From: Fistulifera solaris
Taxonomy: Eukaryota
Direction of reading: 5' to 3'
DNA: 64,000 nucleotides
Assembly: GCA_030295235.1 (NCBI GenBank)
Contig: AP026162.1
Coordinates: 2,418,001 to 2,482,000 of the forward strand
Shown here: positions 15,122-61,946 of the stretch, piece after piece
Numbering within the stretch: position 1 is the stretch's first letter
How the letters are laid out: the number at the start of each line of letters is the position of its first letter
Notes under the pieces: model-generated
Database searches by the model: none
What the model was told of the DNA's origin: nothing
The model's input: only the letters and a program-made list of their open reading frames with translations
Position numbers and translations under genes: made by a program

Positions 15122-15547
15122 GGCGGATGTCGGGAGAAAGAATGCAGTTATTATGAACGAATAAAGAAACAAATAGGGCCGTTTCCTATCCGCCTGCACC
15201 ATGCATAAAAGAAATAAGTATGTCGAGAAAGAGGATACAGACAGAGAATGAGGCTCCAGCAACGTCAAATATCAGAGGATGGTTTGCTGTTATAATAACG
15301 TGATGTTATTGTTGGGAGACTTCCGTTAGGTCTCCAACCAGGGTGAACCTCTTCCGATAGCTCTCCCGTTAGGAGAGACGTTAACTGACTACATTCAACT
15401 TTACAGTAGAGTACGCGCCATTGGATGTGGTACTAATTACTTAGAATCTACTTAGGTTGCTCGATAAAGTAACAAAGCCTTATGAATGACAGTCCCGGAT
15501 GATTCATGAATCACCCCTCTAAGATAACCAAATCCTCAATAAACAAT

Positions 15548-21563: not shown

Positions 21564-22862
21564 ATGTTGGTATCTTTGTTGCAGAAAAGCAGTCGCCCGA
21601 TGATGTCGATGCAGAAGACTCTTCCAAAATTCTTGTCGACCATGGCGCGTACGACATCCGCGGCCGTGCACATTGATCGTTTCACTCCTTCTTCGACTAC
21701 TAGTACTACTACACACTACGACCAGCGCCTTCCGAATGAAGTGAATCAACGCAATGCCTTGTATCAAGACGAAGCCGCCCGGACCTTGGGTGATGTCACG
21801 GCGTCCGTGCGTCACGATTGGACGAAAGACGAAATTGCTGCCATTTATAGTTTGCCGTTTTATGAATTGATGCATCGCGCCAGTATGGTCCATCGCATGT
21901 ACTGGAATCCCGCCGAAGTCCAACAATGCACCTTACTGAGTATCAAGACGGGCGGATGCACGGAAGATTGTAAATATTGCAGTCAATCGACGCGCTATAA
22001 AACGTTTGTGAAACCGACGCCGACGATGAAAGTCCAAGAAGTCTTGCAAGCGGCCCAACGGGCCAAAGACGCCGGATCGACCCGATTTTGTATGGGTGCC
22101 GCGTGGCGGGAATTGGGCAACAAACAAAATGCGTTCGGGCACATTCTCGAAATGGTGAAGGGCGTCAATGCCATGGGATTGGAAGTGTGTTGCACATTGG
22201 GCATGTTGACAGCCGAACAAGCCCGCCAATTGAAACAAGCGGGATTGACGGCGTACAATCACAACCTGGATACGTCACCCGAGCATTACCCGAACGTCAT
22301 TACGACCCGCAGTTATGAAGATCGATTGCAAACGATTGCCAATGTACGAGATGCCGGCATTAGTGTGTGTTGTGGTGGTATTTTGGGATTGGGTGAGAAA
22401 GAAACGGATCGAGTGGGATTGTTGCACGTATTGGCGACCTTACCGGAACATCCGGAATCTGTGCCGATCAATGCTTTGGTGGCCGTCCAAGGAACGCCTT
22501 TGGGTGATCAACAACAAGAAGAAGATGATGATGCCATGAAGTCGGTCGATGTCTTTGATATGGCCCGCATGATTGCGACGGCTCGGATTGTCATGCCCCG
22601 GACGATGGTCCGTCTTTCGGCGGGACGATTGTCGTTCAGTGATGCAGAACAATTCCTCATGTTTCAAGCCGGTGCCAATTCCATTTTCAATGGTGACAAA
22701 TTGTTGACCACGTCGAATCCAGAATTTGACGCCGATCAAGCCTTGTTTCGCAAATTGGGCTTTCAAGGAAAACCCGCCCACCAAGGTCCTTTGGTCGCAC
22801 CGGCCGAAGCAGACGGACATGTCATTGTCACGCACGTGCGGGCGGAAGCGCAGTTGGCTTGA
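21564..22862 (+). CDS. BIO2: Biotin synthase (radical SAM), mitochondrial presequence likely
   Basis: LLSIKTGGCTEDCKYCSQS (CxxxCxxC), STRFCMGAAWR, YNHNLDTS, PESVPIN, RLSAGR, GANSIFNGDKLLTT. Confidence 0.97.
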   Translation: MLVSLLQKSSRPMMSMQKTLPKFLSTMARTTSAAVHIDRFTPSSTTSTTTHYDQRLPNEVNQRNALYQDEAARTLGDVTASVRHDWTKDEIAAIYSLPFYELMHRASMVHRMYWNPAEVQQCTLLSIKTGGCTEDCKYCSQSTRYKTFVKPTPTMKVQEVLQAAQRAKDAGSTRFCMGAAWRELGNKQNAFGHILEMVKGVNAMGLEVCCTLGMLTAEQARQLKQAGLTAYNHNLDTSPEHYPNVITTRSYEDRLQTIANVRDAGISVCCGGILGLGEKETDRVGLLHVLATLPEHPESVPINALVAVQGTPLGDQQQEEDDDAMKSVDVFDMARMIATARIVMPRTMVRLSAGRLSFSDAEQFLMFQAGANSIFNGDKLLTTSNPEFDADQALFRKLGFQGKPAHQGPLVAPAEADGHVIVTHVRAEAQLA

Positions 22863-28781: not shown

Positions 28782-30286
28782 TCAATAAAGGAAGGGCGAA
28801 AACTGCACTAACTCACATAGGATGTCCGTATAATTCGCAAGCAAGAGCGAGGATCGTCGAAAGTCACCGCTAGCACTTTGCATCAGCGTCTCGCCGACGA
28901 TCACTGGTTGAAGCGAAAGAGGTTCCTGCGTGAGCCCTTTTAAGCCGCGAAAGAAGCAGTTGATAACGTACAAATCATCTATCTCTGCACCGTCTGTCAC
29001 TCTGTTTCCATCCTTATCCATTACCTCAATGTACGGATTGCGCTTAAGCAATTGTTTCAGCAACGCATAGCCTGGATCCGCCTCTTCTTGATAGTTATCA
29101 ATTTTAAAATAGCGCAAGCTTTTGTGACTCTCCAACGTTGCGAACATGCTCTCGAGATGTTGATCAAATTGAATGAGAGAGTGATGCAACTGCAGCTCTA
29201 CCAGACTTTGATTAGCCTCGACAGCACGAAGCAGCTCCTCTACCACCGTAGCTAGTATTCTGTCAGACGCGTTGTATTTGAAGGTGAACTCTAATTTCAC
29301 AAAGTGTCCCAGTTCCGCGATACGGCCGAAAAATGCACAGAAAAAATCTTTGTATTTCTCGTGGACGTAAAGTGATCGAAATGATACTGAAAGTTCTTTC
29401 GGAACAATGTCAACAAGAGACCAATCCATCTCCAGAACTGTTTCTTCATGAATTTCAAAACCGACGCCCTTGACCGAGGCGGTCAAAAGCTGGTACATTT
29501 GACGCGGCGTTTCGCATGCAAAAATATGCAGCTTGTCAATTGTTCTGGCTCGTAAGAGGCGATGGAAAATGTCCTCGTCTTGCTCTCGGAAATGCCACAA
29601 TTTTAAATATCCGAACGGCGTAACTCGCTGTAGCAGGATCTCAGCAAATGTAGCGCCCCCATCGGAAAAGTGATCGTCCAGATTTTCCTCGAACGAAAGG
29701 AAAATGGGATGCGGCTGCCGAGCTAAAAACACCGATTGTGCTGGGCTGATGATGTTGGATCCTGCAAACAAAACTTCAGTTTCGACACCGTTTTGAAAAA
29801 GGAGACTCAGTTGATCGGGGGAAAACACACCAAAGTCAATAGGCTGCTCCGAATCAGAAATATACCACCTTCGACAAGTGCTGCCTAATATGCCCCAAAT
29901 AAAGGCCGCTGTCTCCGCAATCGCATGATCTGATTTCCCAATGATTGTACAGTAAAAGAACTGGAGACGATACTAAAGTACCTGTCATCCTCTTCCAAGA
30001 TAGCATTATATTCCGAACCATCTTCATAGTAGTCTCTGTCATCAAAAGTAAGCACTCCATCTTCACATTCGCTTGGTAAATGTGTCATAATAAGAGTGTC
30101 ATTCGGTCGCCAAATTGCATATAAAGCAGTATCAGTAAGCTGCTGGAGGTCCTCAACACTGGGTGTTCTTTTGAATTTGTGCCTGGCCAAGCGTAACATC
30201 ATGAAAGCGGTGACGTCCGGCACTCGCTGTTGGTCCATTTCAGAGAGCGGAATGCGTTCCAAGACGTCTTCAATTCTGGGCAACAT
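28782..30286 (-). CDS. Expanded family, copy H (subfamily I), frameshifts near 29880-29960
   Basis: LERIPLSEM, HKFKRTP, FSDGGATF, DWSLVDIVPKEL, DPGYALLKQLLKRN, LLANYTDILCEL. Confidence 0.82.
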
Positions 30287-30622: not shown

Positions 30623-32148
30623 CTAGCCAGAGTAAAATGCATCTGAACGAAGCAGCGATGGGTATTGTACCAGCTCACATAAAGCATCGGTATGATTCGC
30701 CATCAGAAAAGCCGACCGTTGAAAATCACCGCTTGCACTGCCGGCCAGCGTCTCACCTATAAGCGGTGGTAATAGTGATAGTGTCTCCCGCTTGAGACAC
30801 TGGCAATCTTGATAGAAACGGTTGAATCGATAGATTCGGCCTACTTCATCACCATCTGTCACTCTGTTTCCATGGCGGTCAAACACTTCAATGAATCTGT
30901 TCCGATTTAGCAGTTGCTTTAGCATAGCGTAGCCTGGATCGAACTCCTCCGTATACTCGGCAATTGTAAAGCGGCGTAATCCTGCATGGCTTTCCATCGT
31001 GGCGAATAAAAGATCGCGGTGTTCGACAGTTTGGGTATGCGCATAGCGCAAATGCAACTCTTCTAAACTGTGATTGGCGGATACAGCAGAAAGCAGCTCA
31101 TCGAAGACGCTGCAGGGAATGATCGCGTGCAACTTGCGAAACATTGTGACTCCAAGCTTCCTAAAATCTACCAGTTCGGCGAGTCGTCGAAAAAAAGAAC
31201 ACATAAAGACGATGTGAGTCTCGACATCTAGGTAGGACAACTCCACGGTCAGTTCGTTCGGAACAATGTCGACACGAGACCAATCCAGTTGCAAGCAACT
31301 CTCCACTTTCATCGAAAAGCCAACACCTTTGCTAGAAGAGGACAAGAGCTGCAGTATTTGTTGCGGTGTAGCGCAACCAAGCTCGAAGTTACTGAACTGT
31401 TGTAGCCGTTAAAAGAAAATGAAAGCTGTCATTTTGGCGTTTTCCTCAACCTTCCACAACTTGAGGCTCCCAAAGGGCGAATCCCTTCAAGAAGACTATT
31501 CACAAATAATTCACCCCCGTCCGAGAAACAGCGGAGAGAATCTTCTAAAGTCAGAGAGATAGGAAACGGCATTTGAGCTAAAAACACGGATTGCACAGCA
31601 CTGATATTCGACACTTCCAGCGTGATCTCCATCATCGGAATGTCTCAAATAGAAGCGCCAAGTTGTTGTGTCGAAACAATGCCAAAATTAAAATGTTCAT
31701 TCCAGCATCGGACCTCCCGAAACCGGCTATCGGTGTCGAGTTCCCATAGAAAAGCCGCTGTTTCCGCAATGGCGTGGTCGGACTTTCCAATGACAGTACA
31801 GCGCAGAGAACCAGAACAGAACCAAAAGCACCGGTTGTTACCCAAGGTAACGCATCGGATCGAACTTGTGTCTGGATCATGATAGACGAGCAATCCGATC
31901 CCATGCACCGGCCGGTTCATCTGTCAGAATGAGTGTTTGATTGTCTTGCCATATTGACCATAAGCCTTTCAGCTGCTGAAGGTCTTGGATGGAAGGAATC
32001 CTTCGAAACCGGTAAGTTGGCAACGCGTCCCGACGATTGCGTACAACAATGGGAACGCGTGCTGCAACGCTAGTTGAGTCTGAGGAACGAGTTCGAGCAA
32101 CGCTGATTCTCCGTTTGCAATGCTCTTTTCGATCCGTGATGCATCCAT
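30623..32148 (-). CDS. Expanded family, copy I (subfamily I), multiple frameshifts
   Basis: VIGKSDHAIAETAAFLW, FSDGGELFV, DWSRVDIVP, DPGYAMLKQLLNRNR, RSAFLMANHTDALCEL. Confidence 0.8.
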
Positions 32149-37609: not shown

Positions 37610-40600
37610 AGCAATAATAAACGAGATTCTCAAGCGAATATCACAACAATATCCGCAACAACGATACAACTTGGAATCAATGCGCTTACCGATCTCTCCT
37701 TCACGTGAAATGCTCAATAAACCACCAATATTTGCAAGCAATATGCTTCGTTCTCAGTGTCATCTTTGGATACTCATTGTTCATCATTATCAATGCTCCA
37801 TTGTTGTCCTCCCATACGGTAGAAACTGTAGAAGCAGAATCTCTGTCTATCCCAAAATGAATAGTAAGCTCTTCCATCACCTCTCTGATAGGCAATAACT
37901 GTCTCATCGCAACCGATGCTGCAATAAACTCTGCTTCCGTAGTAGAAAGCGAAATTTCCGATTGTAACTTTGAACCCCACAGCACAGGAACATCACCGAG
38001 TGTGATGACATATCCCGTTCGACTCTTAACACAGACCGGATCATTTGCATCTTCCGAATTCCACAATCCAGCAAAATCTGCATCCACAAACAAATCCAAT
38101 TTCAGATCATTCGTGGGATGTATAATCATTCCTCTCGTTCTCGTAGCCTTCAAATATCGACCAATCGTCTTCAACGCTTTCTCGTGAACTCGTTTCGGAC
38201 AATGAGTGAATCGCGCGCATTGATGCACAGCACATGCAATGTCAGGTCTCGAATTCGATGCCAAATACATCATCATTCCAATAACACTTGCATACGACCA
38301 ATCTTCGACACAATCTTCACCGTTCTCATCCTTTCCAAGCATAGTCGGGCTCGCGGGAATTTGATTTTCTCTACTATCCTGCAATCCCAGCGTCGCAACA
38401 ATACGATCAAAAAGCCCAGTTTGCAACAACTCCAGAGTTTCGTCCGTCTTTTCGCTCAATCAATATACCAAGAAATCCAGCAACACTTTCATCTTCAACC
38501 TTAAGCTGAAATCTCTGATACTTCTCATTGTGACAAAGATCATGAATGACCTCATCGATATCAGACACATCGTGTGCAAAGAACAAGCAATCATCCACAT
38601 AAGTCAAACACAACACCTTATCTGAAAGAAACAAGCACAGCTCATTCTTCGATTGACGAAATCCTCTGTCTTCCAATCCTTTCTTCAATGTCTTAAAGAA
38701 ATTCAGCGGGCTTTGGGCGTAAACCATAAACACTCTTCTTCAACTTGAAAATATAACCTGGTCTCTCGTGAACGCTTTGGCATCTCACAATAGACCTCTT
38801 CGTCAAGATCAGCTTGAACAAAGGCTAACGTATAATCAACCTGTCGTGTCGCCAATCTCAAAACTATCGACATAATCAACAATAGACGCACGGTACTCCA
38901 CGAAACGACCGGTGCATACGTTTCAAAGAAATCGACTCCTTCAATCTGTCGGTCTCCTCGAATACACCAGCGCTTTGTATTTCTTGACAGTCCCATCAGG
39001 ATATCTTTTGCATTTGAATGCCCAAGTACTTGGCAATATGTTGGCTCCCTTTTCTATCGCTTCCGACCTCGGTACTTCATCCCACGGGTCTAACGCCTTC
39101 AACGAGTAGTACTCATCGTCCATTGCTTTTTCGTAACCAATTGCATCCGGACCATTCATCACTTGATAAAAGTTCGGAGCATCCTCATTGTTCACCTTCG
39201 CAGCAAAAGCAAACGGATGTATGTCCTCAATCAAGTTGTCATCGTCGCTGTGTCTGTATCATCGAAACATGTGCCCAATAATTTCCAACAGCCAACGGTT
39301 CCTCATCAAAACTCAATGTCGACAAGAGAGCATCATTCGAAGACAAAACTCCAAATTCAGCTTCAATCTCATGCAACAGTCTCTCTTCTTCGCTCAAACC
39401 AAACTCAGATTTGACGAAGTTCACATCAGTTTCGTCTTCGGGACCAAAGTAACGATCACCTTTCACTGGCTTATTTGCGTAATCGGGACCATAAAACTTT
39501 CGATTCCAATGACAATTTCTACCACTTCTCCTTGGTGGCTGGGGTTCTTCATCTTCATCCACTATGTCACATCTCCCTCTGGAAACGACAACGGAACTTC
39601 TACTTCCATTTCATTCGATTTGTTCTCCACAGGAATTTTTGGGCTCAGGCTCATCGGTATTCGGATTCTGCACCAACGGAATTGTCGTAAACCTTTCGTC
39701 CTACACCACATGAAATTGTGATGAGACCGCACCAGTTCGCAAGTTCCTGATCAAACCAATCGTACTCGCATGTCAGGTAAATATACCCAAGAACTGTCCT
39801 CTTCGACTTTTCGGGTTGCCAACGAGGTAACTTCTTTCCGTCCTGAACTTTTGCATCCAAAACATAACACGGACATCCAAAGACTCTCATCTTCTGTAAA
39901 ACCTCCAAGTTCATGGTCACTCCTGAGAATAACTCAATCGGTGCCAAACCTGTATCTTTCTTCGGAAGTCGGTTCCAAAGATAGACTGCGTAATCCACAG
40001 CAAATGGCCACAACTCAATCTTTGTCTCTGCGGGCCAGTGAATCATCGCATGTAGCAGCATTGTTCGGGCACTTTCGGTAATAGTTCAGTATCGCGTTCT
40101 CGGCAATACCATTCTGATGATGCGCTCCAACACCAGAAAACTCAATGCTCTGTCCTTTAAGCTCTAAATCCTTCATGAATTCCTGTGACTTGTAAACTCC
40201 TTGATCGGTACGGTATCCGTGAATTTCAACACCATACGATCTTGCTTCCTGCTCAAATGCATGCTTTGCTCTGAGCGTCTCTGCAGCCGTCGTAGTAATC
40301 TGATTTTTAACTTGTCGCTGTATCAACGAATATAGTTCCGTAGCCATATTTCTCATTCTCTTGCTCCTTTCCATGAGTATCTTCCCTTCGACCACGTTCA
40401 GATGAAGTAAACTGATTGGATGAAATAACTTGGCCAGGCGTCAAGATGCCAGCCTTTAACACACCGTCTCTACTCGGGACTTTTGACTGCTTTTCGGTTT
40501 CAATTGCACGCCTTTTTGCTTTTCCATATTGACATGCAGCAAAAACTGGCGGCTCGCACGAGGACGTCTTCTCATATCGGGTAGGAATAAGTGGAACATT

Positions 40601-43415
40601 CGTCTTATCCCCCTCAGCGAACTCGCGTGAGTTGCTGAATCCACTGAAAGTTAAAATGCCCCAGACGATCATGAATCAACTTTAATTCACATTGCGCGGG
40701 CGTCAGGTTCAAATTCGCTTCCAACGTTACTTGAATAGAGCTAGGAGCCACAGCAAATCCTTGATTGACCGTATATCCTTGATTGACCGTCAGATCATCG
40801 CACATGGTAAGACGATCTTTGGTAGCGTAAAACGTAAGCTTGGACTTTGTAAAAGGAAACCTGAAAACACATCCATGTTCATTGACCAGGAATGATCCCT
40901 TGCCCCCTCTGGCTTCAATCTGGAAATGAACTTGAGGGCTGAACAACCGTACCTGCGCCGAAGGAACATACAGCTCAATGACGGATTGCTTGAACTTGTC
41001 CGTTATCGTCACGAATTGACCACCTGACAAACCCCCAACCTTTCACTTGGGCCTTCTGTGCAATACCTGTTAAGTTGCCGCCGGAGTTGTGAAACTCCTC
41101 GAAATCTTCTCAATGTGGCGTCACTCCGGTAGATGCTCCAGTATCAAAAACAATTGGCGTCTCTGACACGTTCCGAAGTAGACACTTTGTAGATGAAAAC
41201 AACCATCGACCGGATGACCTTGACCTGTATCCATCAATGGGTAAAGCGTAGCAATGTAGCTTGATAAACTTCCCAATAAACAAAGATCGCATCACAAACG
41301 AACTGGGCACTTCCATAACTTCATTGAAAGCACAACCAATAATCACTCCAAAAGAAACAAGCCAAAGTAGAAAGACAAGCGTGTTGATGATTGCGCTCAC
41401 ACTCATCTTCTCAATTCTGGAAAGTTTGGGCCATCTGCTCCATCGGTCCAGAAAACCAATGAAGCGGCCCATTAAAAACGCTGGCGTCAACTTGCCGGCG
41501 TAATTTCCTTGACCACCTTCTTTATCTTTATCCTTCGCGTCAGAGTCTGAATTCTTCTTGCCTTCCGACTTTGTAGAATCATCCGACACAAAGTTAGCCA
41601 CCATCGCGCGGTGCGTATCGGTGTCATGATCGTTCCATCTGTTGCATCGACCACACCAATAGACCATTTTGCCATCATTAACTTTCTTGTGCGGTTCGCC
41701 TTTCTTTGGAGGAGTGCGATACAGGTCTTTGTCGCCTTTATTGCTGGACTTATCATTTTGTTTTCCGCTACCTTGGCCTTGGCCTCCACGACCACCTCGA
41801 CCACCTTTTCCTCCGCGTCCGCGACCACGACCTCCACGGCCTTCTCTATGACCACCACGCTCATTATTATTCTCTTTCTTCGGCGCTTTGCAGTCTTTGG
41901 CCATGTGCCCTTCCTTTCCACAATTGTAGCAATTGCCGGCAAAGAATCCAGTTTCATCCTCTCCGTCGCCAGCTGCCCACAAACTCGCACCAATCAATCC
42001 AGAATAGAGATTGTTGGCTTTAGCAGTAATGTCTTCCACAGTGCATCTGTCTCCCGCCACAGCTCTAAACGTCGTAAGCTTGCGGTTAAACTCTTCCGTC
42101 GAACTCTTGACTAGTGAACGTTCGATGATAATCACAAAGTCAGGCACAGTCGCATTTCCTGTAAACGTATCCACATTCGAAAGCATATTGAACACTCCAT
42201 GTGCAACCGTGCAATAACTGCGAACGTTTTCGCCAGGAAAGTCGGTTACACTCAAGCTCTCAAACTGATCAATCAAACCACGGAGCGTCGTCGAGTCTCG
42301 CACAACAACGAATTCCATCATCATTTTAAAGTAAACAGGGCCAGTTCGATGAATCTCCGGGAGGCCTTGTGCCTGAGTTTTGATCCTCGTGCGAAGCTCT
42401 TCGGAGCAACTGTTGAGAATCAATTCTCCAGACCAAGCCAAATTTTCCCTTTTGTATTTCTGTCGAGAAACACTCGCCAAAAACACTGAATGTTTTTTAA
42501 TATTCTCCATGCTCACTTCCGAATAACGCAAAAGAAGCGAAGAAATCTTAGCATCTGGCGCTGGGACCTCAATTCCATATCCAGGATGATGCACAAAGCT
42601 CGTCGGAATGTCGAAAACATCCAACATGTCGTACATTCTCATCTTTTCGCAATGTCCCGATACGAAGATCCACACGATACCACTTCACAATGTCTCCGCC
42701 GAGCCCGCAACCTTCAAATTCACAGTGTCCATGGAATCAAACTGCGGTTCAATCCCTTCCGTGGCATGCTCGCGAAGATAGTTTTACTCCTTAGTACTCA
42801 AATCCTTTCTGTCCTTCTTTGGGAATGGAATATTCCCTTCCAACTGCTCAGCGACGCTTAGAATGGTCGCCGGAGGCGCTTCTCCATCCAAGTGATTGCT
42901 CAAATAATCAAACGGATCAGCCATGTTGATTGTTTCGGTCACAGGTTCAGTCGGATTCTGATCTGTCACAAATTCCAACTGTTCTTGTTCAGCTTCCGAT
43001 TCGATGACGTCTTCGAAAGATGAAAGTTCCCTCTCTTCAAAGACTTCTTCCTTTTCTTCGTCACCCACTTCCTCTCTCAAAGCAGGTACTTCCTCTTGTT
43101 GCCGATCTTGTGGTGGGTCAGCACTTCTGGTTCGCCGTGTTGGCATTCAATTCCTCGTCTATCAAACAGATCCAACACTCGCGCGTGAATCTGGGCTCAT
43201 AACCAGCAATAATAAACGAGATTCTCAAGCGAATATCACAACAATATCCGCAACAACGATACAACTTCGAATAACAAAGTCAATTCTAACACATTAATGA
43301 TTATCTTACAATTGTTGTTGCATCGCAACAAGTCATTCCGATGACGTCGACTTTTCAACCAACTCGTGTCCTAGTCAGTAACGTATACTTGAACGAGACT
43401 GCCCATTCATCTTCA
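37610..43415 (-). mobile_element. Ty1/copia LTR retrotransposon, decayed, with a 3' internal deletion; outer edge of the 5' LTR uncertain (43322-43415)
   Basis: Order gag (CYNCGKEGHMAKDC) - PR (IVFDTGAS) - INT (HDRLGH, YRTDQG, QNGIAE) - RT (ETYAPV, YVDD) - RH (FVDADFAG, STTEAEF, WEDN). A 63-bp LTR segment is shared at 37610-37672 and 43205-43267. Confidence 0.93.
43191..43204 (-). other. Primer-binding site complementary to the anticodon arm of initiator tRNA-Met
   Basis: Minus-strand GGTTATGAGCCCAG directly follows the 5' LTR. This is the same type as the half-tRNA PBS of Drosophila copia and yeast Ty5. Confidence 0.85.
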
Positions 43416-44018: not shown

Positions 44019-45551
44019 TCAAGCATGCATCGTAAAAAACGATGAATACTGCGCCAACTCGCATAGGGCATCCGTATGATTCGCCATCAAAAGCGCATTG
44101 CGCTGAAAATCACCTCTTGCACTGCGAGCCAGCGCCTCATTGACTAGTGGTGTTACAAATGACGTTGAGCTTTGTGCCAGGCTTTGGGAGCCCCGAAGGA
44201 AGCCGTTAAATGAGTAAATTCGGTCAATCTCGTCACCATCTGTTATCCTTTCTCCGAAATAATTAAGCACTTCGATCGACCTATTCTTCTTGAGCAGTTG
44301 TTTCAGCATTGCGTGGGTAGGATCCACCTTTTCTAGGTACTGGTCGACTTTGAAGCGGCGCAATCCCTTGTGGTGCTCCATTGCTGCGTATATCTCACCG
44401 AGATGTTTGTCGTATTCGATAAAAGTGTAGCGCATGTAAAGTTCTTCCAAATTTTGGTTGGCGTCTATAACACGAATGAGCTCCTCCGCAATACTTTCGG
44501 GTATGCCTCGTACCCACTTGGGGCAAAGAGCAAGTTTAAGCTTCACAAGATCTCCTAATGCAGCGAGACGACGGAGAAAGGAAGCGATAAAGTCGACGTG
44601 AGCCACCGATTCACAAGATGAGAATTCAACCGACACATGTTTCGGAACGATTTCAATTGTAGTCCAATCCAGCCTCAAGGAGTCGCTGATATCAATAGTG
44701 AAGCTTACTGCTTTCGCTGAAGCCAAGAGCAGCTCTCGTATCAGCAATGGTCCAACGAAGCAAGACATTTCAAGGTTGTCGATTGATTCGCACAGCAGAA
44801 GCCGTTGGAAGCAAACGCCAAGAGGTGCATGTATTTCCCCACCTAGCCTTAGACTACCAAAAGGTAATTTTCTTCCATGGAGTGCTTCCACAAACGCGTA
44901 ACCCCCATCTGAAAAAGAGCCGAGCGAATTCCCTAATTCAAGCGCAATGGGATGCGGTACCTGGGTAATATATTTCGCTTGGGCTGGGCTGATGTTCGAT
45001 ACTATTAATTCTGTCTTGGACTGCCTGTTTCGGAGAAGGAGATCAAGCTGCTCATTCAACACGGCACCAAAGTCAAATCGTTCATTGCAATGTACGTGCA
45101 TGATTTGAATATTGCTTTCTAAACCCCAGACAAAGGCTGCTGTCTCCGCAATAGCGTAATCTGACCTTCCAATGATTGTACAACCAAAAGAGCCGGATTT
45201 GGTATAAATGTATTTTTCATCATAGGCCAGGGTGACCTGCTGTATCAAACTTCCTTCGAAGGCATGATTGCCCTGAAAAAAGAGCTCGCGGTCCACGCAA
45301 CCGAAGGACACACCAGTCACAATGAGTGTATTGTTAGCTTGCCGAATCGCCAATAAACCAGTAAGTTGCCTTAGTTCTTCAGCACAGGGAGTTCTCTTAA
45401 ACTTGTAAATGGGCAATACTGGTCCATTACGATACTGCAGGTACGGCAGATGTCGTAAATTGAGTCGTGACGGAGGAATTTCTTCCAAAACGGACTCGTT
45501 TGCGGTTAGCATTCTTTCTAACCCACGAAGCTCGTCTATCAAACACGCCAT
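44019..45551 (-). CDS. Expanded family, copy J (subfamily I), intact 510 aa
   Basis: Single ORF with LPIYKFKRTP, IIGRSDYAIAETAAFVW, FSDGGYAFV, LRRLAALG, LMANHTDALCEL. Confidence 0.9.
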   Translation of the reverse strand: MACLIDELRGLERMLTANESVLEEIPPSRLNLRHLPYLQYRNGPVLPIYKFKRTPCAEELRQLTGLLAIRQANNTLIVTGVSFGCVDRELFFQGNHAFEGSLIQQVTLAYDEKYIYTKSGSFGCTIIGRSDYAIAETAAFVWGLESNIQIMHVHCNERFDFGAVLNEQLDLLLRNRQSKTELIVSNISPAQAKYITQVPHPIALELGNSLGSFSDGGYAFVEALHGRKLPFGSLRLGGEIHAPLGVCFQRLLLCESIDNLEMSCFVGPLLIRELLLASAKAVSFTIDISDSLRLDWTTIEIVPKHVSVEFSSCESVAHVDFIASFLRRLAALGDLVKLKLALCPKWVRGIPESIAEELIRVIDANQNLEELYMRYTFIEYDKHLGEIYAAMEHHKGLRRFKVDQYLEKVDPTHAMLKQLLKKNRSIEVLNYFGERITDGDEIDRIYSFNGFLRGSQSLAQSSTSFVTPLVNEALARSARGDFQRNALLMANHTDALCELAQYSSFFTMHA

Positions 45552-45859
45552 AGAATAGTGGGGTCGCTAGTTTGTTGGAGGATCTAGAGTCGGCGCATAC
45601 CTGATTATGTCAGTATCACAATCAAATTATGATTTCCGCGCATTTTTTGTTACAAATTTTATTGCATCATCATGGTTTTTATTGACGACTCCTCATCATA
45701 CAAACAAGTCGCTTGTCGCATAGAGATTTAATTCGCGTTTCGCGTTTCATTTCTAGGTGCCAATAAAGCGCTGCGACCTGCGACCTGATGAGGGTTTACT
45801 GATTATCAGTCCCATTTACAAGTGACTAACTATGTGACCAACACCTGGTAAGCAGTCTT

Positions 45860-51003: not shown

Positions 51004-52748
51004 TATTGGTTATACGTGTTGGTAGTTGAATATCATATGCTATCCAATTTCACTATTTTTGCGATACCATAACTTTTCGAAAACATGTCGGATTGCTTTC
51101 GTTTTTCAATATAATAAAACAATTTATTGAGCTTGATTTATATAACAAAGAATAGGCTCGATACGACGTCGGTGTCAAAAGTTGAGGTGCCCCGAAAGGG
51201 ATAGCATATGGGATAGCATATTAGCTAAAACTTGCGTTGAAAGTGACATAAAGCAAGAATGTAAAGGCTATAAGGACAGGAAACTCTCTGTCTAAGCCTG
51301 TTGGGTGCAAAGGCAAACCTGGGCTATTCACGGGACAGGAAATCGTGGCTTTCGTATCAAAGAAACGATTCAATTTCAAATGCTATCAAATTTCCTAGGT
51401 CGTGGCTCTTGAGACGAGTTAACTCCTGTCCATATCGCTCGCCAATTCTGTTCTTACTACTAATGAACTTATGAAATACGCAGTCCTTGCTTGGGGAAGA
51501 ATGTTAACGGCACAATTCCGCTCTCATCTACTATTAATCGGTTTTTCCGAGTGAAGGCTACTTTGACTTCATGCGCTTGGCGCCATCACACTGCTTTTAA
51601 GGCCATAGATTTATTGTTAATGGCTAAAATGCTTTTTTAGTAATACATCATGTACTTCCGACGAAAAAGCGCGACATTCATACTCGAAAAGCTGCGCGAC
51701 GTGCCGCTGAATATTGCTACTTCAGTTTAAGCCGACTCTCATGTTGCTACCACCTCTTTTCCTCCAAATTATTCTATGAGTTAGTTTAACCGTGTTTAAA
51801 CGGTTTGAATGTGCAAACGAACCACGGCAATTGTTTCTTCTTAAAAGCGCTGGATGAGGAAATGAGATATTTCACGAGTGCTTCGGTCTCACCTACGAGA
51901 AGTAAATTGCCGACTTCTTTTATCCACAATCACATAGATCTCGCTTACTTTTTGTCGAAGCATAGAGTAACCGTAAGAAAAGCTGATGAGACGGAAGCAG
52001 TTGCGTTGATTCAAGGTGTAAAGGAAGTCAAGACGTTCTTTATAATACGAATTGCGCTGAGCGAGTATCATTTGCGCCGTGTGGACTCGTCTCACCGTCT
52101 TCTGCTTTCATTTTCACAGTCAGATCTTGTATACCGGTTATTCTCATTACAGCAAATGTTGCAATAAACTGTAGGCTTTGACTGTGACACACAAATTCAT
52201 TCTGTTGGCCTTTATGCTGGCGATGCCACGGCGACGTGGTCAAGGCGTCAACGCTGCTATCGCTCAGCGACTGTAACAATTATTTATTTGTTTTCGTGTG
52301 ATATGAAAGAATTCAGAGTCTTCCTGTGATCAAAGGGACACGCTGCTGCTCAGAACCGTCGTCTTCATGGCCGCAAGGTGCTATTTTGACGCTCGTCGGC
52401 TCACGTGTGCTTTCGGTCATTTTCAGATTTTTGCGATAAAATCACGTTTTATCGAAACCGGATAGACAACTAGTCAGAGATAAAATGTACTTTGGGTACC
52501 GGATTCAGATGTGAAAATTTTCAACAAAACGTGCGGACGAAACTTCCTCCAGGTCGCGAGCAGGTCATTTTCAACGTTGACCTGGGGGTATACGATTGTT
52601 CTTATGGATCAAAACAAGCTTCTAGTTCTTTGTTTAGCACCAACGGACTTAAATTGAACAGAATACGAGTTGCGCAAAAATGTACTTTTGGATAGCATTT
52701 TAGGTAGCATATTAGGGTTCAAAATGCTATCAACACGTATAACCACTA
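51004..52748. mobile_element. 1.7-kb hAT-like non-autonomous TIR element
   Basis: TA(T/G)TGGTTATACGTGTTG inverted match 17/18 (51004-51021 vs 52731-52748); repeated subterminal GATAGCAT/ATGCTATC motifs. Confidence 0.65.
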
Positions 52749-53259
52749 TGTATAATTTCCGTTGAACATGTGTATTAGCGATGATGAATGCGCGTATGAA
52801 ATCAATGGGCTTGAACATAAGCGGTACTCAATTGTACATACTAAACATACTATTGTGTCTTACGACACCAATACTATCCCCAAGAGAGTACTTTAACATT
52901 CTTCCAGCAATAAACGCAGTCGATAGGAGATTTCCGGAGATAAAGTCGCATCGGCAATCGTCTGGGCTAACTCCACCCAATTCAACAATTTTGGTAACAA
53001 AAACAATTTGAGATTATATCTTAAGTCCATCCAAGTAGTTGGGATTTACTGCTGCCGATAAAAGCACTAGAACCGATTCAGACTGGTGTCACGAATAGTA
53101 GAGGCTTAAGATTCTTGTGCATTTTCCCACTGGCGCTGCTGATTTGTAACTATAACGGTCGGTCTACCCAGAGCAGTTGGGCAGTCAACATCCATTTTAC
53201 TAATTCATTACTGCGTTGTCTTTTTGAATGATTAAGACCGGTGGATCGATTTGGGATAG

Positions 53260-54740
53260 CTAAAATGAATACTGCATCAGCTCGCATAGAGCTTCAGTAT
53301 GATTCGCCATCAAGAATGCAGACCGGCGAAAGTCGTGACTAGCGCATTGGGTCAAAATCTCTCCCACCAGTGACGGTAACAACTCCATCGATTCTTCCAA
53401 GAGATCCTGGCAATCCCCAAAGAAGTCATTGAAGGCATAGAGCCGGTCTATTTCGTCGTCGTCTGTAAATGTGTACCAATTGTAGTCGATCACTTGAATA
53501 TTTCTGTTCGTCTTTAGTAGCTCTTTCAACATGTTGTACTGGGGGTCGGTCTCAGCAGGATATGCATCTAATCTGAGGAACTCCAATCCTTCGTGACGCG
53601 CCACTGCCGCGAATATGTCCTGGAGATACGGAGTAACTTGACCATGTGGTTGATAAAGGGCCAGTTCCTGCAGATTTTGGTTCGCGTCAATTGCATCGAT
53701 CAGCGCGGTAACAACCCGACTGGGAACACTGGAGTCGCTCTCATAGCACAAATCGAAATCGAGTTTCACAAAATCTCCCAATTCGGCAAGGCGACGGAAA
53801 AACGAGCAAACACAATCTGTATGAGCCTCCGAATCATATTCGACTTTGAATGCAATAGTCAATTCTTTGGGCACAATGTTCATTCTGGACCAATCTAGAC
53901 CCTGTGCCGCGTCAACTTCGATCGTCAAGTCGACTTCGGCTACCAAAGCGGAAAAAATCAGATGTATCTGCTGCTGTGGTCCAACATATGGTAATACAAG
54001 CTTGTCAATAGCTTCCGCTTGTAAAAGGAGACGGAAATTTTCATTTTGTGTGTAATCCTTGGCAAACAATACCAAAGCCCCAAACGATGATTTCCTTTCT
54101 CGAAGACAATGAACAAAAGTGTCACCACCGTCAGCAAAAGCCTCGGCGGATAGATCTAAAATCAAGTCTATTCTATCCGGATATTCAGCTAGAAATCGCG
54201 ATTGAGCCAAGCTAATGTTGGTTACATCCAACTTGATACGCACATTCGGGTGTGTTTGGAAAAGACCGTTCAGCTGGTCGAGTGAAACGACACTAAAGTT
54301 AAAACGACGAGTGGAGCAACAAATTTCGATGCGCCACGACTCATCTTGTAAGCTCCACAAAAGGCAGCCGTCTCTGCTACAGCGACATCGGATTTGCCAA
54401 CAATTGTGCAGTTCACGTGGTTGTACATGAGGAAAAGACATCGGTCATCGTCGGCGAGGGTAACCAATCCTCCCGGATTCTTTGCGTCGACGGCTTCGAA
54501 TGAAACAGCATCCGACCCTATTTCCTGTAGAGGACCCACAAGTATACGTGTATCATTCGTTTCCTGTAAGATAGAAAAGATAGAGTGACATTCTACCAAC
54601 TCTTCTAGACTCTCTGGAGCTCGGAGGAATTTGTAGGTCGGCCAGTAATCACCATCTTTGTAGCAAATCCTCTGATGCTGATGGCGCTTTAATTGAGACG
54701 CCGGAATAAGCTTTAGCAGCTGAGCGTTTGGAGATGACAT
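53260..54740 (-). CDS. Expanded family, copy O (subfamily I), one frameshift near 54360
   Basis: LLKLIPASQL, WPTYKFLRAP, IVGKSDVAVAETAAF, EYPDRIDLILDLSAEAFADGGDTFV (close to copy B), RSAFLMANHTEALCEL. Confidence 0.87.
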
Positions 54741-55609
54741 ATCGGTTCAATTGTCAAAACTTTGAATGCAAACGGCATAATGCGCGCGGCAGTAAATTAT
54801 TATTCGTTTTCGTCGCAAAAAATAATACAGTCACACCGTTTCCACACTACAACAACGCACAAAGCACAAACAAACACCCGTTTCATGTAAACAATAAACA
54901 ATAAACCGCACATGGGGAAAACGCGTAAAAAATGAGAAACAGTCGAATTATGAATTTTTATTGCGTTTTTAGGAAATTACGAAACTTCCATTGAGAAAGC
55001 GGCTTCGAATCTGAAAAACGCCGAAAAACGATCAACCCCCAAGGAATGAATCGCAGGTCGAGCAGGGTTCGTGATATTTGCGAACCAGCTAATAAGGTAC
55101 GGTACTGTACCGGTACCGTACCTCAGTTACAAGTAAAAGGTGGGGGCTTAGTCTATAGCAAGCTGAAAAACCGAGAGACTTAGCCTTTTAGGCCATCTCA
55201 CATAACTTCTTGAAACCAAGACACAGATCTGTAGATTCAAGCAGCAGGCTTGCACTGACATTTCAACCTCCGCCTTGGCGCACCAGGTCGGCTGTAGCAG
55301 CAACGGCAGTTGAAAGATCATATTCTCCCGTTAAATACTGCACTTCGAACAGGTGCTTCAGGCGATAGGCTGTAAAGGTTCGACCATATAAAGAAGTATC
55401 CATGTTTCTGTGTTCGTAAAAACATCGGTTCATCGCAAACAAAAAAAAAGAAACCTTAATCTATGTGTTAAAATGGGTTTGTCCCTTTCAAGCTGTGAAT
55501 GGAAGATCACGCCGTTTTCAACCCGAATGATTCTGGCGGCGAACGACCCAAACCAGAATTAGCTCCCGATGACGCCACAACAGTAAGCCGTGAAAGATCG
55601 ACTCTTATC

Positions 55610-56203
55610 TCATTTCGCATGCACTCGGATCAGTGCTTTTTGTCCTTCAATTTGGGGTGGATGCATCAATTCCGCGCTCGGCGGCAATTGCTGTAACACC
55701 GTATCTAACAACAGTAGAGGCATTTTCAAGACACAAATATGTCCCTTTTCCAGAAATTTTGTCACTTGCTGTAATTTGCGTTCCAAATCATGGTCCGCAA
55801 TCTTGGGCTGGAGATGAATTTCTTTGATCGTTTTGCGTTTCGGAGCGGAACTTTCTTTTTCTTGTTTGTACAAGAAGGATTTCCAATTCTCCATACGGAC
55901 GACAGGAATCTCTTGTTGCAAGGAAATGCCAATCAAATCCAGTTTCTGTTGGACCGACAATTGTACGGCTTGTGGTAACGACAACAATTGTGTGGAGTTG
56001 GGATGTTGTAATAGACGCACTTGTATCTCTTGCGGCGGTAGATTGCGGGCTCGTTTTCGTATGGCTTGCACGAGTGCTTCATTGACGAGATATTGTTTTT
56101 GGTTACTGCTTTTCGTGGCCAAGGTGGCTGCTGGATAACCAAGTCTTGGTAGTATTCTGCTGCTAGATGATGAACATTGGGCGGCTCTTGCTAGCAAATT
56201 CAT
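55610..56203 (-). CDS. Organellar (probably mitochondrial) translation initiation factor IF-3
   Basis: VNE...VRLL...LDLIGIS...PVVRM (IF3-N) and KEIHLQPKIADHDLERKLQQVTKFLEKGH (IF3-C); presequence-like N-terminus. Confidence 0.85.
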   Translation of the reverse strand: MNLLARAAQCSSSSSRILPRLGYPAATLATKSSNQKQYLVNEALVQAIRKRARNLPPQEIQVRLLQHPNSTQLLSLPQAVQLSVQQKLDLIGISLQQEIPVVRMENWKSFLYKQEKESSAPKRKTIKEIHLQPKIADHDLERKLQQVTKFLEKGHICVLKMPLLLLDTVLQQLPPSAELMHPPQIEGQKALIRVHAK

Positions 56204-56799
56204 GTTTTAAGGCTTTCGAGGGAAGGGTATAACCACTGAGTGTTATGAATTTGCGTGTTTTTGGAATGTCAGCGGAATGAATAATACCCATCCTCAATGT
56301 TTCGTTTTTTCGTCAGTTTGGCTTTTTGTGATTGTCGTCATCCCCATCATCCGCGAACCGCGAACGGAAAAAGGAAACGAAGGGCGAAGTAAGAGCGCGA
56401 AGAGGCGCAAACAAAAAGTGCGACTGACAGATGTTGAATAACCAGTCACGCACGTGTCTACAATAAACGGAAAGACATGTGCACTACATATTACATGATA
56501 CTGAAAACGAGAAGCGAACAGCAATCTACCTAATCCCGAATCCTCGTTATTCAAAGAACTAACAGCTGCCGAAGGAACCTAAACTATTACTGACAAAGAA
56601 CAATGCCAGCAGCTTCTGCATATTCTACATGAATCAAATGAGAACAATGAAGAGACAAACAAGAATTCAAATCAATAGGATAACTTCATTTACTAGCTCA
56701 TAATTTTAACAAGCAATCCGTTTGCAGCAATCCGTTTGCACCAAGTTAATTTTGTCAAGCCCAATCCATAGACGGCTCCGGCACCTGTGGATTTCAAGA

Positions 56800-56815
56800 C
56801 GCTTCCTCTGCGCCA
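56800..56815 (+). other. Putative primer-binding site complementary to the 5'/D-arm region of initiator tRNA-Met
   Basis: CGCTTCCTCTGCGCCA directly follows the LTR. Its reverse complement TGGCGCAGAGGAAGCG matches the eukaryotic tRNA-iMet segment TGGCGCAGNGGAAGCG. Confidence 0.75.
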
Positions 56816-57771
56816 AGTGACCATAAAGCTCCGCACTTTATAACAACTACTTCGTTCGACGAAATGGCTGACGCTAACGCGAACAACGCCAACCAAAACC
56901 TCGCTGCTCCCGTAGCAGTAGCCTTTGCTCTAAGCCCGGCTTGAGCACCCACCATGTCATCGACTTCTCTACTCGCGAAGGATCTCGCCTCTACGAAATG
57001 GCGACCAAGCAGATTGGAGATGAACGATTCGACTGCGATCCCGGTCGCATGCGCTCCTTCATCGAAGGACTTAGCATCCGTGCTAGCAACTTTGGTTGGG
57101 GGCCGATCTTCAACATCCCCCGACGATATCGAAGCCATCGAGCCTGTCCAGAACACCACCAACCTCCTCTCCAACTACGGAGACATTACTTTGGAGCACA
57201 TTCAAGCTCACGCACGCACATACATCGGTACCCAGACCCGTGCAGCTTAAGACTCCTACATGGCAGCCAACTGCCTCATTTCCTCTCTAAGCCCAGCCGC
57301 CATCGATCGCATCACGATCTGGCGGGACCAGTACACCTTTGATGGTATCCCCAGCGGGCCTTGCCTGTTCAAAGTCATCATCCGTGAGACTTACATTGAC
57401 ACAAATGCAACGGTCACGCACATTCGCACGCAGCTCTCCAGTTTGGACCAGTACTTACCTAAGATTCAGCACAACATCACCAAGATGAACCAGCAAGTTA
57501 AACAGCTATTGGAAGGCTTGGCAGCGCGAGGGAGAAACCACAAACGATCTTCTTGCGAATCTCTTTAAGGGTTACAAGGCAGCCTCCGATCGCACCTTTG
57601 TCAACTACATCCTGAAGAAAGAAGAAGATTACCACGAAGGTCTTCCGATGACACCGGATCACCTCATGAACCTAGCAGATAACAAGTACAAGACCTTGGT
57701 ACAACTTTCTCTGTGGAACGCGCCTTCGCCGGAAGAAGAAAAGATTCTCGCATTGGAGGCAAAACTCCAAA

Positions 57772-59587
57772 AGATTCGTAAGCAAAAAGTTCCCCTTTGA
57801 TGTCGGCCGATGATTGACTGAGTTCACTAGCGAACATTGCGATCATGATCTCTATTAATCGAGTAACGGGACGTCGTTGGCGAGTGCTGCGTCTCTCCCT
57901 CTGAGATTGTGGTGGCGATGGAGAGGAAAGTGGTTCAGGTTGACGATCGGTGGACGGAACATTGTCATCAGGTGGTGCGGCGGTCGGCAGCGGCATCGGT
58001 AACGGAGAGAGGTCGGCGGGTGTAGTAGTAGGTGTATCCGACAATGTAGGCGTGGATTGTTGAGGATTTGCGCTTGGAGCGGCAATAAAACCGGCTTTGA
58101 GTTGCCACAAACATGTTTTCGCAAGGTCCGGAACAGTTTGGAATTTCGAATCAAATTTGACGTGAAACTGGGGACTGACGAGTCCTGTGTCTGGGTTCAG
58201 TACCAGGGCGACAGAACGGCTGTGTACTGGAGAACGTCCCAAATAAATTCCGAGATGTGAGCGCAGACGCCATTTGTGAAATATCCGACTTTTTCCTCCT
58301 TGAAGCGCGGCGTCAAGAACAAATACTGGGCAACCGAATGGTTTCCAATGAATTGGATTCGAATGAATATCCGTGTTGGCGAAGAGTTGATAAGGAGTAC
58401 GGCGCTCAGGGTGCTTCATGTTTGGCATGTGGTTGATGGAATCGTTTGCCATGCGCAAAGCATAAGGCCACAGGTGAGTTGTGATGGCTTGCGGCCACTT
58501 GTGTTGTGCATCGATCAGCATCGCTCGAGTGAGTTCTTGCAATTGTCCTATGCGGCGTTCAGCTTTGCCATTTTGATGATGTGCTCCAACTCCTGCAAAG
58601 GAAAGTCCCTGACCGTTTGTTACGCAATCGTTGACCCAAGTGTTTGAATTGAAAATTCCATTGTCGGCATGATAGTGTTTGATCTTTTCGACTCCACAAT
58701 TTCGAGTGTATTGTTCAAAAGCGTGTTTTGCTTCCAAGGTCTCACTCGCACTTTGTGTCTTTTGCAGGTGAACATAACTCAAGCTGGAATAAAGGTCGGC
58801 GAAGACGGTGGGCGCATACAAATAGCGTTTTGTCGTCAAGATTCCTGTGAGCTGCGCAATGAGGCCAGGCGTGGGTGATACCATTTGATCCACAGCAACA
58901 ACTTCGCCGGGGTGAGTAGGCTTGTGAAGGGTTTTGCTTTGTTTAGCTGGTTTCGTTCGCCACTGACGCTTTGTTGCTTTTCCGTAAAAACAGGCGGTGC
59001 ACACCGGTGCCGGACACGTTGCAAGTCGGTGGAATAACTCCTTGCTTCGCCAATTCCTGAAGCTTCTCCATCGGATATTTCACAAATGGCGTCTGCGCTC
59101 ACATCTCGGAATTTATTTGGGACGTTCTCCAGTACACAGCCGTTCTGTCGCCCTGGTACTGAACCCAGACACAGGACTCGTCAGTCCCCAGTTTCACGTC
59201 AAATTTGATTCGAAATTCCAAACTGTTCCGGACCTTGCGAAAACATGTTTGTGGCAACTCAAAGCCGGTTTTATTGCCGCTCCAAGCGCAAATCCTCAAC
59301 AATCCACGCCTACATTGTCGGATACACCTACTACTACACCCGCCGACCTCTCTCCGTTACCGATGCCGCTGCCGACCGCCGCACCACCTGATGACAATGT
59401 TCCGTCCACCGATCGTCAACCTGAACCACTTTCCTCTCCATCGCCACCACAATCTCAGAGGGAGAGACGCAGCACTCGCCAACGACGTCCCGTTACTCGA
59501 TTAATAGAGATCATGATCGCAATGTTCGCTAGTGAACTCAGTCAATCATCGGCCGACATCAAAGGGGAACTTTTTGCTTACGAATCT
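57772..59587. repeat. 517-bp inverted repeat (57772-58288 and 59071-59587) with a 782-bp spacer
   Basis: Identical translations appear on opposite strands in three frames; the junctions were read directly from the sequence. Confidence 0.95.
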
Positions 59588-61946
59588 CTTCAAACCGCCT
59601 CAGCAAAACTCAATCCACCGGATCCATTCTATGTTTTCAAAACGAGCGCCGACCCCGATTCAATGTATTTGCATCAAGCTCGCAAACAACCCGATTGGCC
59701 GGAGTTTTCCAAAGGCATGGACGCCCGAGATCGAGGATCAAATGGCAAATGGAAATTTCTCATTGTTTCCAAGGAGTCAAGTTCCAGAGGGAGCAACGAT
59801 TCTACCAACAGTATGGCAACTTCGTCGCAAACGAGACATTATGACACGCCCGAAGTCAAGAAGTGGAAAGCGACTGACTATTGATGGGTCACGGATGAAA
59901 TATGGTCGCGACTATGAATTGACCTACTCTCCGGTTGCTAATTGGACTTCAATCCGCTTGTTACTAGCAATGGTGATCATACATGGTTGGCATACTGAAG
60001 CAACTTCCGATTATGTTCAGGCATTTCCTCAGAGCCGTAGCGACAAAGAAATTTATCTGTCCATTCCGAAAGGATATACAATACACGGAGCATCCCCGGA
60101 CGATTATGTTCTGAAAGTCCACAAGAATGTTTATGGAGCAAAGGATGCAAGTCGAACATGGTTCCTTTATTTGCGAAAGAAACTATTTGAGATCGGTTTC
60201 AAGCAATCGGAATACGACGAATGTGTGTTTTACTACAAGAGCACGATGTATGTTCTATATACCGGCGACAGTATTCTTGGAGGTCCTAATGAAAAGGAAA
60301 TTGAGGAAATTATTGAAAAGATGAAACAGATCAAACTAGACATTACAGTTGAGGGAGATTTATCGGATTTTCTGGGAGTTAATATCAACAGGATCGGTGA
60401 ATCAACAATTGAATTGAAACAGCCACATCTCATCGACTCGATAATCAAAGACATGAAATTCGACCAGAAGGAAGTTAAAACAAAGGATATTCCAATGGCA
60501 TCATCGAAGCTACTTTCGCAGCATCCCAAATCGCCGCCATTTGACAAAAGTTTTCATTACACTTCAGTCATCGGAAAAATGAACTACCTGACGCGAGGAT
60601 CCAGGCCAGACATCGCCTATGCGGTACATCAATCGCACGCTTTGCATCAAACCCAAGGAAAGAACATGGAGATGCAATGAGATGGCTTACAAAGTATCTG
60701 ATAGGGACAAGGGACAAAGGAATGATTCTGCACCCAGACGTCTCTAGAAGCTTGGAAGTTCATGTCGACGCCCGATTTCGCAGGCAATTGGGATCCAGAG
60801 ATCGCTTTTGAGGACCGAAACACAGCTCGCTCCAGACACGGATTTTTCATCACCTATGCCGGAGTATTGTTGCATCACAAGAGTCAACTTCAGACAGAAA
60901 TTGCATTGAGTTCCACCGAGCGAATTCACCGGATTGAGCTACGCACTCAGAGATGCAATTCCTATCATGAACACTTTGAAGGAGATGCAATCACTCGGAT
61001 TTGATGTGAAAGAGTGGAGGCCAAAAGTCCATTGCAAAGTATTTGAGGACAACTCGGGAGCTCTGGAAATCGCAAAAGTTCCGAAGGCTCGACCAAGGAC
61101 GAAGCATTTGAATGTCAAACTGCACCATTTTCGGTCATACGTTGACAGCGGAGATATAACAATCCACAAAATCGATACTCTCGAACAAGTTGCGGATATT
61201 CTAACGAAACCACTCACATTTGATCTCTTTGCCAAACATCGGAAGGCAATTCTCGGATGGTGAGATCGCAGTTCGAGAGGGAGTGTTGAATAACCAGTCA
61301 CGCACGTGTCTACAATAAACGGAAAGACATGTGCACTACATATTACATGATACTGAAAACGAGAAGCGAACAGCAATCTACCTAATCCCGAATCCTCGTT
61401 ATTCAAAGAACTAACAGCTGCCGAAGGAACCTAAACTATTACTGACAAAGAACAATGCCAGCAGCTTCTGCATATTCTACATGAATCAAATGAGAACAAT
61501 GAAGAGACAAACAAGAATTCAAATCAATAGGATAACTTCATTTACTAGCTCATAATTTTAACAAGCAATCCGTTTGCAGCAATCCGTTTGCACCAAGTTA
61601 ATTTTGTCAAGCCCAATCCATAGACGGCTCCGGCACCTGTGGATTTCAAGAGACAGACACTTAAGGTTTTCACTATGGTGATAAAAGTCGGTGAGTTACT
61701 CGTTTCGTACATTTGGGTTGGTACACAAACGAGACCGCAGCGTGATGATGTTTATTATGCTGCGATGGGTCATTTTCGCCTTTTGCGGCCCTGCAAATAA
61801 TACTCCGTACCGAAAAAAAAGAGAAACGATAATAGAGAGCAAAGGCTTTTACTTTCCTATCGTTTCTTAACATAAAAGAAAAACCGACTTGCCTGGCGTA
61901 ACGATTGAAGAGTAGTAGTGTCTATCGCCGGAAAGAATCAAGCAGA

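Follow-up and report, generated by a model that had tools for sequence, protein, structure and literature searches.

A candidate primer-binding site for the D-arm of initiator tRNA-Met in a clade of diatom Ty1/copia elements

Introduction

The primer of Drosophila copia is the first 39 nt of a tRNA. As far as the accessible parts of the literature describe them, copia, Ty5 and the plant elements Osser, Bryco and Gymco-II (1/2 tRNA-Met) have no TGG, carry a primer-binding site (PBS) against an internal part of initiator tRNA-Met (iMet) and take a 5' fragment of that tRNA as primer. The element described here (element A) resembles them in all of these respects, its primer being a prediction. Elements of the copia/Ty5/Osser type pair with the anticodon stem-loop and their fragment ends near nt 39-40, whereas element A would pair with the D-arm and its fragment, as read from the sequence, would end at nt 23. 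Element A therefore has the internal iMet complementarity of a half-tRNA element and not the pairing with the anticodon stem-loop; a second element in the same stretch of DNA (element B) has that pairing.

Several other elements likewise have an internal PBS in the published material available, namely Tca2 of Candida albicans (a tRNA-Arg fragment), the plant element Bianca (1/2 tRNA-Ile) and the fungal element FunCo1 (internal tRNA-Lys). These differ from element A in using other tRNAs, with the site in the anticodon arm or the cut in the anticodon stem. The conventional copia PBS, as described in the accessible accounts of most plant Ty1/copia elements and of metazoan GalEa, involves the same tRNA-iMet and the same position after the LTR as in element A, but it starts with TGG and pairs with the 3' CCA end of the tRNA, and element A has no such site. 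Tf1/Sushi and TAR elements are like element A in having no site for a tRNA 3' end; theirs pairs with the 5' end of their own transcript. The diatom CoDi copia elements share with element A a diatom host and diatom-named relatives, and the text on them by Maumus et al. (2009; PMC2806351) holds no occurrence of 'primer binding', 'tRNA' or 'polypurine'.

Neumann et al. (2019) distinguish three primer types for LTR elements: an element may use a complete tRNA, take a half-tRNA produced by cleavage in the anticodon stem, or prime itself. Reviews and surveys, in the parts open to us, list further internal sites in tRNA-Arg, tRNA-Lys and iMet and describe none in the D-arm. Internal tRNA-fragment priming is known in copia elements, and the anticodon stem is the one location linked to it to date. 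We found no description of a D-arm PBS, or of priming by a D-arm fragment, in the literature searched, which lay mostly outside subscription journals. The author of the initial annotation of the locus likewise knew of no account of such a mode; an earlier description of a D-arm site fixed across a clade is possible.

Element A is a defective Ty1/copia element

The window is the whole 64-kb stretch of DNA analysed here. It contains a biotin synthase gene (21507-22859) whose named relatives come only from diatoms (Seminavis, Nitzschia, Amphora, Cyclotella and Bacillariaceae). Element A is a 5,220-nt LTR element of the Ty1/copia type at positions 56432-61651. Its two LTRs (56432-56799 and 61284-61651, plus strand) are 368 nt each, in direct orientation and 100% identical, and read TGTTGAA...TTCAAGA. 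A perfect target-site duplication, GACAGA, flanks the element at 56426-56431 and 61652-61657. This is 6 bp long, compared with the 5 bp usual for copia, or alternatively 5 bp with an extra G.

Several features expected of Ty1/copia are present: LTRs with a target-site duplication, a copia-type reverse transcriptase, a polypurine tract (PPT) before the 3' LTR and a candidate PBS after the 5' LTR. The reverse transcriptase frame (59517-60680, plus strand) matches Pfam RVT_2 with E 1.5e-30 (107 bits against a cut-off of 31.6) and is 63% identical to its best relative. An open frame at 60910-61263 (plus strand) aligns with the end of the pol consensus and represents RNase H or the C-terminal end of pol; the PPT, GAGAGGGAG, follows at 61275-61283, directly before the 3' LTR.

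The rest of the interior is damaged. A gag remnant without a Pfam match (56865-57800, plus strand) is interrupted by an in-frame stop at 57248-57250 and by a frameshift, and no protease frame was seen in the element. A 520-nt inverted duplication has its left arm at 57769-58288 and its right arm at 59071-59590, the two being 100% complementary. Whereas relatives have gag_pre-integrs before RVT_2, the integrase core of element A is inverted within this duplication: an open frame at 57664-59079 on the minus strand, with a weak SH3_retrovirus match, covers the core and the C-terminal part of integrase. With its interior rearranged and its gag broken, this copy is defective and not autonomous; support for the PBS comes from intact relatives. 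The inverted duplication, which coexists with identical LTRs, could have arisen when the reverse transcriptase switched templates or through a rearrangement not long ago, or it could be an artefact of assembly.

The site after the 5' LTR matches the D-arm of initiator tRNA-Met

The 16 nt at 56800-56815 read CGCTTCCTCTGCGCCA and begin at the first base 3' of the 5' LTR. The initial annotation had drawn attention to these 16 nt and to the lack of a TGG-type PBS, and both observations are correct: the base that follows the LTR is C, there is no TGG 0-5 nt from the LTR end as in a conventional 3'-end PBS, and TGG is absent from all 60 nt after the 5' LTR, up to the region of the gag ATG. With up to 2 mismatches allowed and both strands counted, the 64-kb window contains this one match to the sequence (0.04 expected), and at least one match arose in 4 of 100 shuffles of the window.

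The reverse complement of the site, TGGCGCAGAGGAAGCG, equals nt 8-23 of tRNA(CAT) genes with initiator features, so that 16 of 16 bases pair. We obtained these genes by scanning IMG/VR contigs for CGCTTCCNCTGCGCCA, which gave at least 120 loci and at least 130 motif sites. The reference genes thus come from virus-classified contigs and not from diatoms, often lie in tRNA clusters and were picked by the motif itself. Among the matches listed, 96 of 130 motif sites fall inside tRNA genes called by ARAGORN, and 88 of these 96 are tRNA-Met(CAT), corresponding to 75 distinct sequences; the placement of the motif at nt 8-23 of eukaryotic iMet, given in the initial annotation, is borne out by them. 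The motif starts at nt 8, or at nt 9 where ARAGORN adds one 5' base. Of the 75 distinct tRNA(CAT) sequences among the matches listed, 68 carry A as base 1 and a GATCGAAAC-like T loop occurs in 61; both are marks of eukaryotic initiator tRNAs. Position 16 of the tRNA is A in 49 of these 75 listed sequences, G in 17, T in 6 and C in 3, A16 being the commonest variant.

The D-loop of the matching iMet has no position 17, and linear nt 23 is therefore Sprinzl G24. The part of the site conserved in relatives (see below) is the 14-nt candidate PBS CGCTTCCTCTGCGC at 56800-56813, complementary to iMet nt 10-23 (Sprinzl G10-G24). It covers the 5' strand of the D-stem and the D-loop, together with all but one of the four bases in the 3' strand of the D-stem. 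In element A two further complementary bases, CA at 56814-56815, stand opposite G9 and U8.

A different partner for the site would be some other host small RNA with the 3' end ..GCGCAGAGGAAGCG, either a second tRNA species sharing this D-arm or an RNA that is not a tRNA. The same 16-mer does occur in non-Met tRNAs, at 8 of the 96 tRNA sites among the matches listed (Val 3, Arg 2, Pro 2, Ile 1, all in virus-classified contigs). The remaining 88 of those 96 listed sites are tRNA-Met(CAT), most with initiator features, and we regard another small RNA as very unlikely. Another tRNA would also need an internal cut, which would leave the mode of priming unchanged.

The block is conserved at the LTR junction of related elements

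A profile of 32 pol proteins found 249 related metagenome stretches, and the best 80 of the 249 represent 78 distinct loci, with best-segment identities of 44-72%. The element A reverse transcriptase has named relatives in the diatoms Cylindrotheca closterium and Fragilaria crotonensis. Viral contigs were scanned twice for pol relatives, and none came up. Many of the metagenome contigs are circular permutations with one collapsed LTR.

The sequence CGCTTCC[T/C/G]CTGCGC occurs on the pol strand in 52 of the 78 loci drawn from the best 80 of 249 stretches. Allowing up to 1 mismatch in its 13-nt core, these loci (best 80 of 249; 396,962 nt) yield 54 sites, all on the pol strand and none on the opposite one, where 0.078 per strand are expected. 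Across 44 distinct sites, including that of the window (relatives again from the best 80 of 249), no variation is seen at positions 1-7 and 9-13, and C occupies position 14 in 91%. Position 8, counted in 43 sites, is T in 37 (86%), C in 5 and G in 1. This position faces tRNA position 16, and the two rank orders are complementary (T, C, G against A, G, C). The base at position 15 is random (0.12 bits), and 80% of the sites have A at position 16. Conservation in the relatives thus spans 14 nt, corresponding to tRNA nt 10-23, with little beyond. The conservation at the LTR junction anticipated in the initial annotation accordingly holds for the first 14 nt, in 52 of 78 loci (best 80 of 249), and does not extend to all 16. 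In some families the complementarity goes on into the acceptor strand with position 9 left out; locus L179, for example, fits nt 3-8 of an iMet of the type found at locus L118.

The block adjoins the last LTR base in every distinct site, and the first base after the LTR is C in 44 of 44. Immediately upstream, the LTR ends in the usual way, with A at -1 in 100%, C at -2 in 93% and A at -3 in 91%, while the rest of the LTR is not conserved, nor is the 5' UTR around the block. The LTR of element A ends in AGA, and 37 of the 44 distinct relatives (best 80 of 249) end in ACA. In the relatives, as in element A, AGAGGGAG followed by TG precedes the LTR. The block lies 201-564 nt after this conserved PPT and TG (39 LTR-PBS pairs from 38 loci), one LTR length past the end of pol, and an open frame of gag size begins some tens of bases 3' of it. 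Among the 52 carriers, 19 have an open pol frame of at least 1365 codons together with a second open frame of at least 408 codons. These coding-competent members have the D-arm site and not a conventional 3'-end PBS, as the proposal in the initial annotation implied that intact members should.

A chance resemblance, or a functionless relic of a captured piece of tRNA gene, has next to no likelihood in our judgement. The short length of the match is the one point on its side. Set against it are the rarity expected in the window and in the relatives, the 54 sites found in one orientation and at one position, and the invariance of the block while neighbouring bases drift.

Self-priming as in Tf1, with the 5' end of the element's own transcript folding back on the site, is suggested by the lack of TGG, which the accessible descriptions of self-primed elements also record. 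Such pairing (Tf1/TAR type) was sought with 10 nt or more required. Within the LTR of the window element, complements of the site reach at most 6 nt; in the 39 LTR-PBS pairs the longest measure 4-7 nt. These lengths are at the level of shuffled LTRs, and self-priming was rejected; it is extremely improbable here.

The block could also be an auxiliary packaging or annealing site, for the D-arm of iMet or for another factor, with priming elsewhere or from the CCA end. Ty1 has extra boxes that contact its tRNA and Ty3 has a split PBS. Accessible accounts of both describe bipartite sites that also contact tRNA arms, and a conserved duplex of only 14 nt would suit such a role. Against such a role, the block always adjoins the last LTR base, where the first DNA nucleotide must be added, and no TGG-type site follows the LTR in the window. 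In addition, neither the 78 loci nor element A contain, on the coding strand, any match to a 9-mer complementary to the core of the iMet T-arm. On these grounds we consider an auxiliary role unlikely. The search for a T-arm complement box did show GATCGAAA to be over-represented on the coding strand (26 against 5), which probably stems from the codons of the conserved pol motif IDRK.

Apart from the block, the PPT and LTR start, (G)AGAGGGAG followed by TGT, are nearly invariant across L121-L198 and make a handy marker. In two contigs that have the 3' LTR beside the 5' copy (L126, 5997-6123; L157, 5990-6116), C, identical to the first base of the PBS, follows ..ACA in both copies. This may be an effect of a 127-nt assembly overlap, or a base of the primer site may have been carried onto the LTR end.

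Loci without the block mostly end before the junction

Nearly all of the 26 of 78 loci without the block stop short of the LTR junction. Their sequence upstream of pol is no longer than 1158 nt (normalised), and in the 13 carriers that have the block upstream of the pol match it sits 1210-1574 nt away. The PPT marker described above is present in 18 of the 26. In three of them (L143, L155 and L189) the LTR ends are homologous to those of carriers (L122/L127, L154 and L185, respectively) and are followed by unrelated DNA; by their sequence, these junctions are read as a 3' LTR with its flank. The bases that follow the LTR there are A, A and C. Two loci, L174 and L178, are ambiguous.

No other PBS was seen in the 26 loci, the junction being mostly outside the contig, and weak look-alikes of the block in them are scattered in coding DNA. 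One candidate for a 3'-end PBS, TGGTACGGGAA in L189, was discarded: it lies inside the LTR, and the LTR end of L189 matches that of the block carrier L185.

Element B carries a candidate half-tRNA site

A second, decayed copia element of an unrelated lineage, element B, occupies 37610-43272 on the minus strand. Its reverse transcriptase is 28% identical to that of element A. Remnants include a gag with a zinc knuckle (41113-42684) and traces of gag_pre-integrase and of the integrase SH3 domain. The element is bounded by a 68-nt direct repeat (43272-43205 and 37677-37610, 99% identical). LTRs are seldom as short as these repeats, which finish with ..TGCT.

Directly after the upstream repeat, at 43204-43191, stands GGTTATGAGCCCAG, the complement of iMet nt 26-39 (Sprinzl 27-40) according to the tRNA genes among the matches listed. 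Judged by this complementarity, it is a classical half-tRNA site, directed at the anticodon stem-loop of iMet. Two copia lineages in one genome thus appear to address the same tRNA at two different internal sites.

The host has an initiator-like tRNA with a closely matching D-arm

ARAGORN found no tRNA genes in the 64-kb window, and no Rfam match reached the gathering score. We compared contigs from the host with the 72-nt iMet gene of L118; the host sequencing run used (X1) contains 0.89 of the sampled words of window positions 52000-57600, and nothing from two other runs, X4 and X5, aligned. A 47-nt host contig (depth 36.9) reads AGCACTG followed by tRNA nt 8-44, and 35 of these 37 positions are as in the L118 iMet, with no gap. 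There is consequently no intron at the proposed cut. The acceptor strand ahead of the match starts with A1 and the contig continues through an iMet-like anticodon arm, which also speaks against the other small RNAs weighed above.

An initiator-like tRNA(CAT) is therefore present in the host, differing from the L118 reference by no more than 2 letters in the D-arm region. One of the two differences is probably in the anticodon loop, where element B implies CTGGGCTCATAACC and L118 has CTGGGCCCATAACC. As to the match with the host iMet presumed in the initial annotation, an initiator-type piece is present (35 of 37 over nt 8-44), and the exact GCGCAGAGGAAGCG at nt 10-23 is likely.

A model for priming by a D-arm fragment

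We consider it probable, with a real share of doubt, that the 14 nt are the minus-strand PBS of a clade of diatom Ty1/copia elements and are primed by a 23-nt 5' fragment of tRNA-iMet. The observations behind this are the anatomy of the element, the complementarity, the conservation of the block at one position throughout the clade, and the lack of any site of the TGG or self-priming type. From them we infer iMet as the host partner, G24 as the end of the fragment and the way in which the tRNA is cut. As far as sequence comparison can go, the primer of about 23 nt put forward in the initial annotation is upheld.

Under this model the site would pair with nt 10-23 of cytoplasmic initiator tRNA-Met. 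The first DNA nucleotide would be added opposite the last base of U5, placing the 3'-OH of the primer on the base paired with C56800. Since the pairing ends at the last LTR base and a free 3'-OH is needed there, the tRNA would have to be cut after G24. Such a cut, one base before the end of the D-stem, would yield a 23-nt 5' fragment that reverse transcriptase could extend into U5. The fragment might be pre-formed, or the whole tRNA might be cut after annealing. In Tf1, the element's RNase H makes an internal cut at the end of the duplex and so produces the primer.

The length of 14 nt may be set by two methylations that block Watson-Crick pairing, m1G9 and m2,2G26. Initiator tRNA-Met carries both, and nt 10-25 would then be the sole stretch of its 5' half free of pairing-blocking methyls. 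Both modifications are frequent in eukaryotic tRNAs according to the accessible sources. During plus-strand strong-stop synthesis, copying of the primer would stop before m1G9, so that exactly 14 nt would be regenerated in each cycle. The m1A58 of retroviral primers fixes the 18-nt PBS in an analogous way. Position 15 would be inherited through the genomic RNA only and hence be free to drift; its variation is family-specific, in keeping with this proposal. The pattern fits iMet in particular in two details: the rank orders of site position 8 and tRNA position 16 are complementary, and conservation ends with the base opposite G10, beyond which the base facing G9 is random and that facing U8 is mostly A.

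Several points weigh against the model, besides the defects of the window copy and its LTR end in AGA. The D-arm of a folded tRNA is locked in a stem and in tertiary pairs and must melt, and a 14-nt duplex is shorter than the usual 18-nt duplex of a retroviral PBS.

A more specific version is doubtful, though worth stating: a pre-formed 23-nt 5' iMet fragment, cut in the D-stem, would prime a diatom-wide copia clade, the supply of the fragment (e.g. under stress) would gate transposition, and the 14-nt site would be the footprint of m1G9 and m2,2G26. Rogato et al. (2014), in the parts available, report P. tricornutum fragments of about 19 nt 'matching the D loop and the anticodon' that belong to no standard class. 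These may offer a lead on D-arm cuts in diatoms, and only a lead.

If D-arm-fragment priming is correct, internal priming would have a second site, fixed across a clade, and the position at which a tRNA is cut could evolve. It would also provide a natural case for what sets the length of a PBS, as the block fits the unmethylated stretch between G9 and G26. Short 5' tRNA fragments would be tied to the start of retrotransposition; in the literature accessible on the subject, tRNA fragments are mostly linked to its inhibition (3' fragments). There may be a practical side as well. Diatom genome projects are described as screening LTR candidates with software that requires a PBS for a tRNA 3' end, and such screens may discard or misjudge the clade with the D-arm site. 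Copia elements are described as a major class of diatom transposons.

Other features of the window

An RNase H-like frame (Pfam RVT_3, 13886-15271, minus strand) adjoins a 5.6-kb segment with 130-nt perfect inverted repeats at 15314-15443 and 21045-21174. The segment contains an Ulp1-protease-like frame (15810-16391, minus strand) and is possibly another mobile element. Elsewhere, a stretch of 118-123 nt recurs at 28794, 30656, 44040 and 53263, and inverted at 5069, with 63-74% identity. It starts long minus-strand frames without a Pfam match (28785-29972, 30623-31408, 44022-45566 and 53263-54444), and the frames that share it look like a local gene family.
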